DNA from: an uncultured Helicobacter sp.
GTDB lineage: Bacteria > Campylobacterota > Campylobacteria > Campylobacterales > Helicobacteraceae
Length of the DNA: 64,000 nucleotides
Direction: 5' to 3' (one strand)
NCBI RefSeq assembly: GCF_944325775.1
Contig: NZ_CALVBL010000001.1
Part shown: in pieces, positions 1-64,000 of the stretch
Layout of the letters: every line of letters begins with the position of its first letter
Numbering within the stretch: position 1 is the first letter of the stretch
Position numbers and translations under genes: made by a program
Notes under the pieces: model-generated
Told to the model about the DNA's origin: nothing
The model's input: only the letters and a program-made list of their open reading frames with translations
Databases searched by the model: none

Positions 1-1662
1 ATGGGATTCAAACACTACCACGCCGATGGTATAAGTGCGCTTAGAATCTTTGGCAAACCCAAAAAACGAGCCATTGTATTGATCGATGTATTCGCCATTT
101 TTGGCAATTTTTGCCGTGCCGGTCTTGCCCCCCACGATTACATTTTCTACAAGCGCGGGCTTGCCCGTGCCTTTTTGCACCACTTGGATCAGCAGATCCT
201 CTACCTTGTGCGCGATGTTTGGCGAGAGAATCTGTATAGGTGTGGGTGTGGGGAGATTGTATCGTTGTGAATCTTGCGCGCTAATGTATTGAGTAATGCG
301 TGGGGTGGGCAAATATCCGCCATTGCTGAAACTCGCATACGCACGCATAAGCTGCATAAATGTCGTCTGCAATCCATACCCATAGCTTATCGTTGCCTTA
401 GTCGCTTCCTCGATATTGAGACGACGCACGCTGGGGATCGTGCCGCGCTTTTCATAAGGCAGATCGATCCCGCTAAGCTCTGAAAATCCAAAGGCTTTGA
501 GCGCGGTATGAATCTCCTTAGAGCTTAGAGTCGCGGCGAGCTTTACCATACCGATATTACTAGATCGGAGCAAAATATCCTCTGGCGTGCCTTTAGCTAG
601 GACACTGCTATCGCGTATCGTGTAGTTGCGTAGCTTATACACGCCCCCTTCTAGATCGATGATTTGTGTGGGGTCGATTCTATTTTTTTCAAGCAAGATC
701 GCATAGATGATGGGCTTAATCGTGCTGCCGGGCTCATAGACACGCTCTAGTGCACTTAGATTCAAAAACGAATAATCCCTTATCTCACGCAAAGCACTGG
801 GATTGAAACGATTAGAAGTCGCAAGTGCCAAAAACCGCCCACTATATGAATCCATCACGCCAGCGATGACTTCTTGGACATTGTAGCGGGATTTCGCCCT
901 ATCGAGAATCTCCTCAAGCTTGTGCTGCACGCGCAGAGGGATACTTAGTGTCACATCAAACCCGTCTTGACGCATTTTTTTGATCGCCTCCTTGTCGATG
1001 ATGACATTAAAGCCCACATCGCGCTTGCCCACGATCTCGCCATCTTGCTTGGAAGCTAGAATATCGTTGTAGTATTTTTCCACACCCTTTAGTCCATACA
1101 CACGCGTGATCCCATCGATCTCGCCCTTTTTGACATAGCCGATGAGTGGCTCTAGCAGGCTCTTATAAGGATAGGCGCGGTTATTGCCACTGACTTCTAT
1201 GCTAAGTCCTTGTTTGGGGATCACCACGCCCTTGGCATTTTCGTATTCCCTAAACACATCATAACGCAACAAAATGAGATTGAGTTTTTTGAGATTGGTG
1301 GCGATGCTATTGTTGAGATTATAAGAGAGCACAACACTGCCTTTGGCGCGAAATTTGTTCTCAATCTCACCCTTTGGTATCCCGCTATAAATCGAAAAGA
1401 GGTTGATAAAAAGTTCTTTTTTGTCTGGATCAATGCTTTGGGTATTTATGCTTGCTTTATAGAGATTGGAGCTAGAGGCGACCTCAAAACCATCAAGACT
1501 AAAAATCGAACCCCTAAGTGCGGTATCAATCTTAGTGCTTTGGAGTGTGGGGATTTTGCGTGGGGTTACGATTTTGACATAAACGATAGAGAGAAAGATG
1601 ATAAAACACGCAAGAAGAATAAAAAAAATACCTAAAATGACAGAGACTCTTTTATTTTCCAT
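1..1662 (-). CDS. ftsI: Penicillin-binding protein (FtsI/PBP3-type transpeptidase), 3' end runs off the window
   Basis: Not in the ORF track because its stop is outside the window. Read manually from ATG at 1662: MENKRVSVILGIFFILLACFIIFLSIVYVKI (TM anchor); near position 130 ...VGGKTGTAKIAK (KTG motif). Follows fliE as in H. pylori. Confidence 0.9.
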   Translation of the reverse strand, partial: MENKRVSVILGIFFILLACFIIFLSIVYVKIVTPRKIPTLQSTKIDTALRGSIFSLDGFEVASSSNLYKASINTQSIDPDKKELFINLFSIYSGIPKGEIENKFRAKGSVVLSYNLNNSIATNLKKLNLILLRYDVFREYENAKGVVIPKQGLSIEVSGNNRAYPYKSLLEPLIGYVKKGEIDGITRVYGLKGVEKYYNDILASKQDGEIVGKRDVGFNVIIDKEAIKKMRQDGFDVTLSIPLRVQHKLEEILDRAKSRYNVQEVIAGVMDSYSGRFLALATSNRFNPSALREIRDYSFLNLSALERVYEPGSTIKPIIYAILLEKNRIDPTQIIDLEGGVYKLRNYTIRDSSVLAKGTPEDILLRSSNIGMVKLAATLSSKEIHTALKAFGFSELSGIDLPYEKRGTIPSVRRLNIEEATKATISYGYGLQTTFMQLMRAYASFSNGGYLPTPRITQYISAQDSQRYNLPTPTPIQILSPNIAHKVEDLLIQVVQKGTGKPALVENVIVGGKTGTAKIAKNGEYIDQYNGSFFGFAKDSKRTYTIGVVVFESH

Positions 1663-1693
1663 AGTGCTTTGATGCGCGCATTTAGTGCAAGGA

Positions 1694-2020
1694 TCACACT
1701 TGTGTGCGCAAGATTTCTTTGTAAGCGTTGATGGCTTTGTTGCGAACCTCTAGCATTACTTTCATACTATTTTCAGCTTTTGAGATCGCGATGGCGGCTT
1801 GATGCAGGTCTTTGATCTGCCCTGTCGCCATATCGGCTAGAGCTTTTTCGGAAGTCTGCTGCTGGGTATTGACAGCATCGATGGTATTTGTGAGTGTTTG
1901 AGCGAAATCAAGTCCATCCTTGGTAGTAGGGATAGGTGTGCCTGTCTTGCTCACACTGGGATTGATATCTGGTTTGATGATATCGCTTCTAATCACGCCA
2001 AATTGACTTATTTCAGCCAT
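1694..2020 (-). CDS. fliE: Flagellar hook-basal body protein FliE
   Basis: C-terminal DLHQAAIAISKAENSMKVMLEVRNKAINAYKEILRTQV; downstream of flgC. Confidence 0.96.
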   Translation of the reverse strand: MAEISQFGVIRSDIIKPDINPSVSKTGTPIPTTKDGLDFAQTLTNTIDAVNTQQQTSEKALADMATGQIKDLHQAAIAISKAENSMKVMLEVRNKAINAYKEILRTQV

Positions 2021-2033
2021 TTCTCTCTCCTAA

Positions 2034-2528
2034 CTATGCTTGAAACATACTAATCGCATTACTCGCCATATTTTTCGCACTCTGGAATGCGCTCACATTG
2101 GCTTGGTAAGCTCTTGTCGCTTCTATCAAATCGGCCATTTCCACTACCGGATTAACATTTGGATACGCCACATAGCCTTCAGAGTTCGCATCTGGGTGGC
2201 TTGGATCGTATTTCATCAGTGGCTGGCGATCATCACGCACGATTTTATGAATATACACGCTCATTATAGCAGGTTTTGGCTCTTTTCCCAAATCCCCCTC
2301 ATCTAGCGGATCCTCATAACGCAGTTGATTATTGTCCTTACCCAAACGCTCGTTTAAGATCTTGTTAAAATCAAATGCGCGAAACACCACCTCACGCCTT
2401 CTATAGGGTCCGCCTTCATCGGTGCGTGTAGTATTAGCGTTGGCGATGTTTGAAGAGATGATATTGGTGCGCACTCTTTGGGCAGAAAGTCCATAGCCGC
2501 TGATATCAAAGCTTGATAAAAATGACAT
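2034..2528 (-). CDS. flgC: Flagellar basal-body rod protein FlgC
   Basis: SSNIANANTT, GGPYRRR and YDPSHPDA...GYVAYPNVNPVVEMADLIEATRAYQAN motifs. Confidence 0.98.
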   Translation of the reverse strand: MSFLSSFDISGYGLSAQRVRTNIISSNIANANTTRTDEGGPYRRREVVFRAFDFNKILNERLGKDNNQLRYEDPLDEGDLGKEPKPAIMSVYIHKIVRDDRQPLMKYDPSHPDANSEGYVAYPNVNPVVEMADLIEATRAYQANVSAFQSAKNMASNAISMFQA

Positions 2529-2538
2529 ATCCTAATCC

Positions 2539-62801: not shown

Positions 62802-62845
62802 ACTTCCTTTCCTTTTATGTGGATTTGTGCTATGGTAAAGCTCTT

Positions 62846-62977
62846 TTAAGCCAATGCCAAGTTTTTGTATCCTATGTCCTTTTGCACAAAAGGAAAAAGC
62901 CCCTTATCCGCCCAAAATCTAAGCGTCCTAGAGGCTACACCCGTCTTTCTTTCTACTTCGATGATTGTGTATGCCAT
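62846..62977 (-). pseudogene. Truncated MerR-family regulator (43 aa)
   Basis: Not in the ORF track. RBS AAGGAAAG, then MAYTIIEVERKTGVASRTLRFWADKGLFPFVQKD (start of a MerR HTH), followed by unrelated residues and TAA. Confidence 0.8.
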
Positions 62978-63033
62978 ACGCTTTCCTTAGTGTTTAAATG
63001 CAGTAATTGCTATAAATGCCCACCTAAGCACTT

Positions 63034-63522
63034 TCAGCCCAACAAATACTTTTTATACTCCTCAAATGGCAAGGCACTAAAATCCTCCGCATAAATGCAA
63101 AATGGTGGTTTTATACGCATAGCTCTTCGCTCAAAACCATAATACATAGGCTTTAATAACTCCTCTATGCTTGCATTGCTACCCTCATAATCGCCTTTAT
63201 GTCCGCCCATTGTGGTAACCACACCAAAGGCTTTATCTTTAAAGATTTGCTCTCTATAAATAGGCGTTAGAACCTCGTCCTGCCAATGCTTTAGCAAGGC
63301 TGGGACGCTATACCAAAAAAGCGGGAATTGCCATATAATGCTTTTTGCCTCTCTAACAAGATTTATTTGAGCCTTTGTATCGATGTGATAGTCTGGATAC
63401 AAGAGGCTAAGATTTTGCACACATACAGAATCTAGCGTATTTGCCTCCTCTATTAATGCCTTATTTACCACAGAATCTTTAAAATAACTATGTGCGAAAA
63501 GTAGTAGTGTTTGCATTGTCAC
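63034..63522 (-). CDS. Flavodoxin-like NAD(P)H oxidoreductase (KefF/MdaB family)
   Basis: LFAH...SVVNKAL, WQFPLFWYSVPALLKHWQDEV, and TTMGG. Confidence 0.9.
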   Translation of the reverse strand: MTMQTLLLFAHSYFKDSVVNKALIEEANTLDSVCVQNLSLLYPDYHIDTKAQINLVREAKSIIWQFPLFWYSVPALLKHWQDEVLTPIYREQIFKDKAFGVVTTMGGHKGDYEGSNASIEELLKPMYYGFERRAMRIKPPFCIYAEDFSALPFEEYKKYLLG

Positions 63523-63654
63523 TCCTTAAATAGTGTAATTTATGTGTAGCTTAGCTTTCTATTTTGCCCTGCTTTTTTAGCCATTTTATGCCAACTTATG
63601 CTTGCTTGCTCCATATCAACCTGCTTGATTGCTAGTTTGGCATTATTGCTAACC

Positions 63655-64000
63655 CTATTTGCCAACTCTTTTTGCTGCATCGCCGCTGTATCGCTCACCG
63701 ACAATCTTTATAGAATCTAACTTGCTATTGATAGAATCTAGCTCCTCTTGGCTAAGGCTTACACCTAGTGCGCCTAAATTCTCATCTAATCTCTCAAGGC
63801 TAGTAGTGCCAAAGATAGGCACAATATAGGGCTTTTGGGCGAGATTCCATGCTAGGGCGATTTGAGCCTTTGTGGCGTTTTTAGCTTGTGCTATGCCCTC
63901 TAGCTCATCTATTAGGGCTAGATTGGCTTTTATATTTTCTTGGCTAAATCGTGGCACGCTGCTTCTAAAATCATCATTCTTAAAGCTAGAATTAGCACCA
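63655..64000 (-). CDS. Aldo/keto reductase, C-terminal part (5' end outside the window)
   Basis: DDFRSSVPRFSQEN, ATKAQIALAW, and VPIFGTTSLERLDENLGA; the frame is open to the window edge. Confidence 0.9.
   Translation of the reverse strand, partial: GANSSFKNDDFRSSVPRFSQENIKANLALIDELEGIAQAKNATKAQIALAWNLAQKPYIVPIFGTTSLERLDENLGALGVSLSQEELDSINSKLDSIKIVGERYSGDAAKRVGK

Follow-up and report, generated by a model that had tools for sequence, protein, structure and literature searches.

Why should a run of ordinary housekeeping genes repeat the same few letters every few hundred bases? The question arises from a 64,000-nucleotide stretch of DNA (the window) at the start of contig NZ_CALVBL010000001.1, from an uncultured Helicobacter sp. 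(assembly GCF_944325775.1). An earlier note on this DNA described the quasi-palindrome TAGAWTCTA (W, A or T) as iterated in the manner of HIP1 (highly iterated palindrome 1) of cyanobacteria or of an uptake sequence. Our analysis shows that the word is AGAWTCT, and that it is a lineage-specific, hyper-abundant and actively maintained short DNA word. The likeness drawn by the note was to the point. The motif is a real, iterated, GANTC-centred signal at the level of DNA, and its density lies in the range of the DNA uptake sequences (DUS) of Neisseriaceae and the uptake signal sequences (USS) of Pasteurellaceae.

The word and its excess in the window

Counted on both strands, the octamer TAGAATCT/AGATTCTA matches exactly at 90 sites, whereas dinucleotide-preserving shuffles yield 2.46 ± 1.65 (maximum 8); a hand tally of 85-90 copies with about 3 expected was therefore accurate on both counts. 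TAGAWTCTA has 33 matches against 0.59 expected. Under a maximal-order Markov model, the 8- and 9-mers are fully explained by their sub-words, and the excess begins at the level of 4- to 6-mers. Since the 8-mers are accounted for by their own 7-mers, the excess has AGAWTCT / GAATCT as its unit. The GANTC-centred iteration described earlier thus stands, but the 8-9-mer palindrome as its unit gives way to the core AGAWTCT with lineage-specific flanks.

AGAWTCT occurs 172 times between positions 43 and 63739, at 2.7 copies/kb and a mean spacing of ~370 bp, and 90 of these copies extend to TAGAATCT. The first octamer lies at 42-49, where the field had been said to begin; the last lies at 63732-63739, not at the 63730 given before. 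An order-1 model predicts ~12 copies of AGAWTCT, which makes the excess 14-fold. Under the same model, AGATTC/GAATCT is found 267 times against ~43 expected and the core GAWTC 347 times against ~148 (~2.4-fold up), while GASTC (S, G or C) is reduced to 26 against 72-105 (~3-fold down).

Preferences around the core are short. In oriented copies the base 3' of GAATC is T in 77%, the base directly 5' is A in 61% and T in 27%, and the base before that is T in ~45%. WGAATCY (Y, C or T) covers 287 of the 347 GAWTC sites, among them AGAATCT (172), TGAATCT (73) and AGAATCC (25). The side form TGAATCT is asymmetric in the window, with 73 copies against 7 of its mirror AGAATCA. In a pool of ten other enterohepatic lineages the asymmetry is less marked (104 vs 38), and AGAATCC is symmetric with its mirror there (77 vs 85). 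What the clade shares is the quasi-palindrome AGAWTCT, while the side forms are specific to lineages; the favoured extension of AGAWTCT is TAGAATCT. No flank information was detected beyond 2-3 bp on either side of the word, which rules out a longer dispersed repeat or a miniature inverted-repeat transposable element. A further side form, TGTGAATCT/AGATTCACA, has 18 copies in the window (for example at 25247 and 26270), with 4 occurrences of 12-mers such as TTTGAGATTCAC. This side form is similar to the H. pylori DnaA-box consensus, TCATTCACA; it is probably just this lineage's TGAATCT variant with a T-rich 5' flank.

The window is ~90% coding, and protein-level constraint had to be separated from a signal in the DNA itself. 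Synonymous codons were permuted inside each gene, so that the proteins and the codon usage of each gene were kept. This null is conservative because the motif inflates the frequencies of the codons that it uses. AGAWTCT nevertheless remained in ~3-fold excess (172 vs 55.7, z = 26.8), and every form of the word was still enriched (z = 11-28); the excess, which was to vanish under a codon-aware null if the motif were spurious, persisted throughout. For TAGAATCT, 90 copies were found against 27.5, of which 22 are fixed intergenic copies, leaving ~68 coding copies against ~5.5. GAWTC was the most significantly enriched short palindrome in the window (1.6x over the codon null, z = 13), and GASTC was still depleted (26 vs 75, 0.35x, z = -6.5).

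Genes were taken from a greedy map of open reading frames (ORFs), and its few known errors were corrected for a six-frame test in which intergenic DNA was shuffled too. GAATCT was enriched in six of six frame classes (1.5-7.6-fold, z 2.8 to 16.6) and most of all between genes (47 vs 5.6, 8.4-fold, z = 21), which bears out the remark that copies lie in several coding frames as well as in intergenic DNA. In coding sequence the word favours three contexts: GAA-TCT for Glu-Ser, GAT-TCT for Asp-Ser (antisense strand of the word) and xAG-ATT-CTx for Ile-Leu. An artefact of codon or amino-acid usage is ruled out by the synonymous null, the enrichment in six frames and the intergenic peak.

The word also lacks direction. 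GAATCT lies on the plus strand 136 times and on the minus strand 131 times; the ratio is 54:57 up to ~28 kb, where the GC skew switches, and 82:74 from there on. No sense/antisense or replication-arm bias of GAATCT was found in the window, and this lack of strand bias over 64 kb speaks against polar signals such as Chi, FtsK-orienting polar sequences (KOPS) and transcription-linked words. The skew switch itself is a minimum of cumulative GC skew, and genes turn from mostly minus to mostly plus strand at ~26000-28000. It could be a replication origin or terminus, or merely the change in gene strand; no dnaA was found in the window.

Dialects and conservation across Helicobacteraceae

The comparison covered orthologous loci of ~21 kb centred on hslU, four plasmids and two published methylomes. 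The chromosomes of H. pylori, H. hepaticus and Campylobacter lay outside the direct analysis, and published GANTC counts (H. pylori) and plasmids were used instead. By its hslU neighbourhood, the organism finds its matches in Candidatus Helicobacter avicola and in relatives of H. equorum, and it is frequent in chicken-gut metagenomes. AGAWTCT is enriched 5-20-fold in ~17 enterohepatic Helicobacter lineages, including H. cinaedi, H. labetoulli, H. magdeburgensis, H. japonicus, H. marmotae, H. equorum and Ca. H. avicola. In an unbiased scan it was the best-scoring 7-mer in most of these loci and among the top two in all, and the density in motif-rich loci is 2.7-4.2 copies/kb. At the orthologous loci of H. 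cappadocius, H. sp. 13S00482-2, Sulfuricurvum, Sulfurimonadaceae and the outgroups, it was at or below expectation.

Other lineages keep the core and change the flanks. The Wolinella loci hold 55-57 copies of GATTCCC and 47-49 of CGATTCC against ~3.3 expected per 21 kb, and 26-29 copies of CGATTCCC against 0.9. In the two Wolinella metagenome-assembled genomes (MAGs; L015 and L023), GGAATCG occurs 47-49 times per 21 kb, equally on both strands, and its mirror GGATTCG 0 times. The palindromic form proposed earlier therefore does not extend to Wolinella, whose version is strictly non-palindromic. H. sp. 10-6591 and a MAG from Hadza gut prefer AGAATCTG and CCAGATTC, and in the species 11S02629-2 and 13S00401-1 the base two before GAATC is T in 74-80% of copies. 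Helicobacteraceae thus share a family of dialects on one conserved core: (T)AGAWTCT in enterohepatic species, GGAATCG in Wolinella and AGAATCTG in some lineages. In a neighbour-joining tree of HslU, two motif-less Helicobacter nest within the motif-bearing ones and Wolinella falls outside. This nesting, in a tree of a single gene, tentatively suggests that a GAWTC-centred system was ancestral and was subsequently lost. The Sulfuricurvum MAG (L020) has a word of its own on TCGA/ATCGAT (TCATCGA 37 vs 5.9 expected and TATCGATA 14 vs 1.1, both strands), which may be another lineage-specific iterated word in Campylobacterota, with a weaker effect.

Copies are also kept. Between the window and its closest relatives, motif 7-mers are retained 2-3 times more than other 7-mers, and synonymous third positions are identical at 0.83-0.89 in copies against 0.57-0.74 outside. 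The same is seen between H. cinaedi and H. labetoulli (122/125 = 0.98 in copies vs 0.84 outside, p = 2e-6), the lineage L011 (0.91 vs 0.77, p = 3e-4) and H. japonicus (0.83 vs 0.60, p = 5e-3), and in the GGAATCG dialect between the two Wolinella (98/100 = 0.98 vs 0.87, p = 1.4e-4). Three more species pairs go in the same direction without reaching significance. Expressed as divergence, synonymous change is 2-7 times lower in copies than outside in both dialects.

A copy in hslU (45252-45259, minus strand) shows how this works at a single site. It lies at a conserved Val-Glu-Ser (GTA GAA TCT), and its orthologues track the dialect: the codons are GTA-GAA-TCT in enterohepatic species, GTG-GAA-TCG in Wolinella and GTG-GAA-TCA in motif-less Helicobacter species. 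The residues are the same, and the synonymous choice follows the dialect of each lineage. Polarised three-taxon counts gave 0.12 losses per copy, half the 0.24 of composition-matched control words (p = 0.015). For gains per near-miss site the figures were 0.022 against 0.008, a 2.7-fold difference from only 3 events that is not significant (p = 0.11). Loss of copies is reduced; a push of near-miss sites toward the word is only suggested.

Methylation, mobile DNA and the placement of copies

GANTC had been described as a common methyltransferase target, and in a related enterohepatic species nearly every copy of it is methylated. In H. typhlonius (1,920,832 bp, 38.8% GC), SMRT (single-molecule real-time) sequencing found N6-methyladenine (m6A) at 99.7% of 20,546 GANTC positions, on both strands (PMC4705304). 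From this count there are ~10,273 GANTC sites at 5.35/kb, ~1.5 times the expectation from composition; the density in the window is 5.8 sites/kb. GANTC accounts for ~71% of the m6A calls in H. typhlonius (20,492/28,716), a share that is largely explained by the abundance of the GAWTC core. Other methylated palindromes are rare in that genome (GATC 1,166 positions, GTAC/CATG 1,068, GTNNAC 512), and its authors tabulated the GANTC count without comment (PMC4705304). The supplement on H. typhlonius gives no information on a restriction partner of the GANTC methyltransferase. Within the 64-kb window, no DNA methyltransferase or competence gene was found.

In H. pylori the same site goes the other way. 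M.HpyAIV methylates 5,570 GANTC positions in strain 26695 (PMC3936762), which corresponds to 1.67 sites/kb or about half of expectation. Gastric plasmids avoid the site as well: pHPG27 of H. pylori has 13 GANTC against ~29 expected and 0 AGAWTCT, and pHCW of H. cetorum has 0 GANTC against ~25. The hint that had been drawn from GANTC methylation in H. pylori thus pointed in the wrong direction. The 37-kb plasmid pVir of C. jejuni has 0 GANTC against ~81 expected. Gastric and C. jejuni plasmids show strong restriction avoidance of a site that enterohepatic species accumulate.

The window has avoided words of its own. Under the codon-aware null, the observed/expected counts were 3/124 for GGCC, 3/102 for GTNNAC, 2/52 for CCWGG and 23/129 for GTAC; CCNGG, ACNGT and GGNCC were at 0.2-0.3x, and AGGCCT, TGGCCA and GTATAC were absent from the window. 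Because GAWTC has accumulated while these true targets are near-absent, GANTC is unlike a restriction target in this clade. RAATTY (R, A or G) was mildly depleted in the window (89 vs 124.9 expected, 0.71x), and a Campylobacter-type RAATTY mark is ruled out as it is not enriched.

Resident accessory DNA carries the word in full. On the H. cinaedi plasmid pHci1 (GC 31.5%, which is 8% lower than the chromosome), AGAWTCT is enriched 13.1-fold, against 12.7-fold at the chromosomal locus, and TAGAATCT reaches 2.7/kb. A strain-variable island in the window (2898-5743) is skipped over its 2,846 bp by contigs of two chicken-gut metagenome runs (X6 and X12). It has 9 AGAWTCT copies, or 3.2/kb, which is full density against 2.7/kb overall; its four genes include one for a capsule-biosynthesis-phosphatase-like protein and one for a 497-aa protein with a weak kinase-like match. 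The low-GC block of the window has 2.4 copies/kb. A scan of viral contigs for motif pairs returned mostly chance matches, the highest of them in a repeat region of Campylobacter phage CPt10 and in a crAss-like phage. The annotated repeats of the CPt10 provirus in IMG/VR (phage 166.6-175.7 kb) have 1.65 AGAWTCT/kb and 42 GAWTC against 1 GASTC. This local richness reflects internal repeats of the phage and is distinct from the Helicobacter phenomenon.

The lineage also recombines. From 44058 to 45611 (~1.55 kb, essentially hslU plus the upstream gene's 3' end), the window and Ca. H. avicola differ at ~12 positions, and ten of these lie within a 111-bp patch that parts 809 bp without mismatch from 633 bp with one; the flanks are 10-25% diverged. 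This pattern of differences marks a recent short-tract recombination import between two lineages and shows that recombination takes place in this one; it is a single event and silent on the role of the motif. In its shortness and its interspersed divergent patch, the tract is like the imports described for transformation in H. pylori (PMC2582958). A side observation concerns a 531-aa protein (40471-42066) with two phospholipase-D-type domains, which is best matched by cardiolipin synthase (8e-31) and more weakly by DISARM DrmC (6e-20) and the nuclease NucT (2e-12). NucT is linked to transformation in H. pylori.

Individual copies show no special arrangement. Placement in 64 kb is Poisson (coefficient of variation of gaps 1.00, bin variance/mean 1.01), and pairs within 20 bp number 10 against 9.2 ± 2.9 expected. 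Overlapping and back-to-back copies, which the note had singled out, are therefore as frequent as chance predicts at this density, and special pairing and tandem arrangement are ruled out at the 64-kb scale, on which no periodicity is apparent either. Examples of close copies are the 16-bp palindrome TAGAATCTAGATTCTA formed by two overlapping copies in a divergent spacer (9984-9999), whose hairpin is no better than shuffles; the overlapping inverted pair AGATTCTAGAATCT within a gene of the island (4398-4411); the tandem pair AGATTCTA AGATTCTA within a pstA-like phosphate-transporter permease gene (28740-28755, minus strand); and three copies packed into 61 bp upstream of ccsBA, at a gene's 3' end (56580-56640). 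Two convergent spacers hold an inverted pair with a weak 8-bp stem and no T-tract (22680-22700, fold z = +0.19) and the three copies TGAATCT, AGATTCT and TAGAATCTA (32677-32713, fold z = -1.7, not significant). That inverted pairs act as terminator hairpins is ruled out by these comparisons of folds with shuffles.

Intergenic density is 4.2-7.3 copies/kb in divergent, tandem and convergent spacers alike. Some copies lie 30-60 nt upstream of start codons, and the TAGAATCT copy nearest to metN, which the note took for its -10 box, is a candidate for that role (26302-26309, minus strand, 136 nt upstream of the called metN start). Association with promoters or terminators as a general explanation is ruled out by the similar density in every type of spacer. 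The housekeeping genes of the window include a penicillin-binding protein gene, fliE/flgBC, rplU, metA, the O-acetylhomoserine sulfhydrylase gene, hemB, arsS, atpB, lptG, metNIQ, pstSCAB, a phoBR-like pair, flaA, bioB, era, hslVU, metK, hemH and ccsBA, with two tRNAs. As had been noticed, the word is rare in flaA (34924-36501, minus strand; 1 AGAWTCT, 0.6/kb) and absent from rplU (7147-7464, minus strand; 0 copies), and such low numbers are expected of strongly constrained genes. Two shadow ORFs are misassigned by greedy longest-ORF mapping: 7151-7471 on the plus strand faces rplU, and 19888-20457 on the minus strand overlaps a tRNA-Ser (19934-20021, plus strand).

Candidate explanations and known systems

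Taken together, the data point to a directional process. It acts on DNA, on both strands and on chromosome, island and plasmid alike; it has a drifting specificity of 7-8 bp around a fixed, methylated GAWTC core; and it can be lost. Our preferred reading, which we hold tentatively and at less than even odds, is that AGAWTCT is a Helicobacteraceae analogue of HIP1, DUS and USS, a methylated self word maintained by a directional process tied to DNA exchange. The methylated word would serve as a self tag recognised by a sequence-specific DNA-binding component in DNA exchange between cells, and the step that reads the tag may be uptake or later processing and recombination. Fragments or alleles with the word would be preferentially passed on, and molecular drive, the process by which DUS and USS are explained rather than by selection on each site, would pile it up wherever the protein code permits, on chromosome, islands and plasmids. 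Such a transmission bias would also slow the decay of existing copies. Shifts in the flank preference of the reader would give rise to dialects, and its loss would lead to background decay, as in the H. cappadocius group, or to renewed restriction avoidance of GANTC, as in H. pylori. Both the putative reader protein and the link to DNA exchange are inferences.

Precedents exist near and far. C. jejuni, of the same order, takes up only DNA with a motif methylated by CtsM (PMC8468864). This RAATTY system resembles the present one in that m6A on a short A/T-rich word decides uptake, and it demonstrates that self-recognition by a methyl mark occurs in Campylobacterales. Motif and methyltransferase are different, RAATTY is at 0.71x here, and C. 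jejuni pVir avoids GANTC. In cyanobacteria, methylated HIP1 boosts transformation up to >100-fold (bioRxiv 10.1101/2024.09.10.611283), and HIP1 abundance has been reported to correlate phylogenetically with type IV secretion proteins.

Several observations weigh against the preferred reading. The searchable literature yielded no data on uptake or transformation in any enterohepatic Helicobacter or in Wolinella, and a review, citing the genome paper, describes H. hepaticus as having no comB competence locus (PMC3895553), which weakens a simple uptake reading. The methylation of GANTC in this organism is read across from a relative, H. typhlonius. AGAWTCT, at 7 bp, is shorter than known uptake sequences. 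Its one-mismatch neighbours are not enriched (0.3-1.5x, save TGAATCT at 2.2x), so that the word is sharply bounded, unlike HIP1 and USS, whose one-off variants are enriched (PMC4390886). Copies are not evenly placed, and inverted pairs fold no better than shuffled controls and have no T-tracts. Lastly, pHci1, the island and the low-GC block show no depletion. Mobile and accessory DNA of Neisseria and Haemophilus is usually poor in uptake sequences; with equal density on plasmid, island and low-GC block, a process acting on all resident DNA fits at least as well as uptake drive. In its most specific form, in which methylated AGAWTCT and GGAATCG are a true methylation-dependent uptake or recombination signal and GANTC has switched roles in Helicobacteraceae, the proposal seems to us possible but doubtful.

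Comparison with the known systems shows where the word belongs. Like HIP1 (GCGATCGC), AGAWTCT is a short word raised tens-fold in all frames and in intergenic DNA, its centre is a methyltransferase target in relatives, and its copies are conserved beyond the neutral rate; over-representation of at least 10-fold in coding and non-coding DNA and conservation are among the traits of HIP1-type words. HIP1 has flank variants on a fixed core (GCGATCGC vs TCGATCGA) and has been lost in some lineages (PMC4390886, PMC5861425), and flank-variant dialects on a conserved core and loss lineages are likewise seen here. Unlike HIP1, the word belongs to another phylum and has another sequence; it would carry m6A at GANTC where HIP1 has m6A at GATC and 5-methylcytosine (m5C) at CGATCG; and it is a quasi-palindrome of 7 bp with W at its centre, non-palindromic in its Wolinella form. 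Periods of 10-90 kb have been reported for HIP1, whereas copies here are Poisson in a 64-kb window, a scale too short for such periods.

DUS and USS share with the word a density of ~1-4 copies/kb, equal orientations, tolerated coding frames and a higher density between genes. A report on DUS describes a conserved core with lineage dialects (PMC3630211), as in the AGAWTCT family. Unlike DUS and USS, which measure 9-12 bp and need no methylation, the word has 7 bp and a methylation site as its core; its inverted pairs form no terminators, as those of Neisseria do, and plasmid and accessory DNA are not depleted of it. An uptake bias and a receptor have been demonstrated for DUS and USS, whereas the present word is known from sequence alone. 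Restriction-modification of the M.HpyAIV/HinfI type in H. pylori and CcrM/GcrA in Alphaproteobacteria have the same G(m6A)NTC core, and H. pylori and H. typhlonius are both nearly fully methylated at GANTC. Unlike the H. pylori system, GANTC has accumulated here, with W preferred over S at its centre and with specific flanks. The word is best filed as an addition to the class of hyper-abundant words centred on methylation sites, sharing only some features with each of HIP1, DUS and USS. No earlier description of it in Helicobacter or Wolinella was found in the searchable literature, and reports beyond it are possible.

The strongest rival is a neutral bias inside the cell. Repair, nicking or gene conversion, perhaps coupled to the GANTC methyltransferase or to a nuclease that partners it, would make and restore the motif, and the word would have no function. 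We consider this unlikely, although it fits the uniformity of replicons best, with equal fold-enrichment on the lower-GC plasmid, the island and the low-GC block. Poisson placement, the effect on all frames and on intergenic DNA, the mild depletion of most one-mismatch neighbours (0.3-0.9x) and the 3-fold reduction of GASTC while GAWTC is up are also what such a bias would give, and a changed specificity of the enzyme could yield dialects. However, we know of no repair enzyme with such a bias for m6A sites; Vsr-type repair belongs to m5C systems, and Campylobacterota, to our knowledge, are without MutS1/MutL mismatch repair. Moreover, only ~10 AGASTCT sites are expected, too few to be converted into a 14-fold excess. 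The conservation of HIP1 sites has been taken to speak against neutral replenishment (PMC5861425), an argument that a site-restoring repair would evade by mimicking conservation.

Somewhat lower we place a selected binding site, in which a chromosomal protein would read (hemi)methylated AGAWTCT, require sites throughout each replicon and act in the nucleoid, in the timing of replication or segregation, or in global transcription. Individual copies are conserved beyond neutrality in two dialects, pHci1 carries the motif too, and the core is fully methylated in the relative H. typhlonius. SeqA with GATC and GcrA with extended GANTC are models for such a protein, and GcrA of Caulobacter reads methylated GANTC with extended, asymmetric preferences in flanks and centre. 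The roughly 5,000 sites per genome, on the other hand, would leave very weak selection on each; neither periodicity nor regional structure was seen in 64 kb, and neither promoters nor any other class of spacer is preferred. The H. cappadocius lineage and gastric species have also lost the trait, with nothing obvious in its place. HIP1 has been interpreted in the same way, with a role in the nucleoid proposed (PMC5861425).

A self tag that controls nucleases, either by Chi-like attenuation of AddAB or as a mark shielding resident DNA from a nuclease or defence system, is improbable. The word resembles Chi sites in being an over-represented, lineage-specific short word conserved in core DNA, and its over-representation extends to the plasmid; Chi sequences vary by lineage. 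Known Chi sites are strongly co-oriented with replication, whereas GAATCT has no polarity by GC-skew arm (54:57 and 82:74). The word further differs from Chi in its methylation-site core, methylation playing no part in Chi recognition, and in its equal abundance on the plasmid. Chi-like behaviour was noted in the HIP1 transformation study (bioRxiv 10.1101/2024.09.10.611283). Least probable by far is a trivial origin, whether in codon or amino-acid usage, in restriction avoidance that targets neighbouring words, in a dispersed repeat or in -10 boxes: Glu-Ser (GAA-TCT) and Asp-Ser (GAT-TCT) are indeed the commonest coding contexts, TAGAAT is like a -10 hexamer and some copies precede start codons by 30-60 nt, and the genome strongly avoids many palindromes, but the reading is effectively refuted by the codon null, frame, orientation and spacer tests, since the excess outlasts the null in six frames and peaks between genes, the outer flanks are uninformative, gene orientation has no effect, convergent spacers are equally dense and neighbouring words are merely mildly depleted.

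Hyper-abundant words are rare and informative: DUS and USS led to sequence-specific uptake, and Chi to the control of recombination. HIP1, whose function was long obscure, has been a puzzle for 30 years and is only now being tied to methylation-dependent transformation. AGAWTCT adds a fourth independent example, in a clade to which emerging pathogens of humans and animals belong (H. cinaedi, H. equorum and poultry Helicobacter). The family is a natural experiment: it comprises two dialects, one or more lineages that lost the word, and gastric relatives in which the site is a restriction target, and the responsible genes should be findable by phyletic profiling.

If the word is an uptake or recombination signal, it would be the first uptake-sequence system with dialects in Campylobacterota. 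GANTC would then be a self tag that enterohepatic species and Wolinella accumulate and a restriction target that H. pylori, H. cetorum and the mobile DNA of Campylobacter avoid, and enterohepatic species would possess an unrecognised, comB-independent competence pathway. If it is a by-product of repair, it would point to a new sequence-specific repair activity. Either way, it provides a strong k-mer signature for the binning of Helicobacteraceae in metagenomes. Should the word govern DNA exchange, it would set the partners with which these bacteria share genes in the gut and would offer a handle for the transformation of poorly tractable species.

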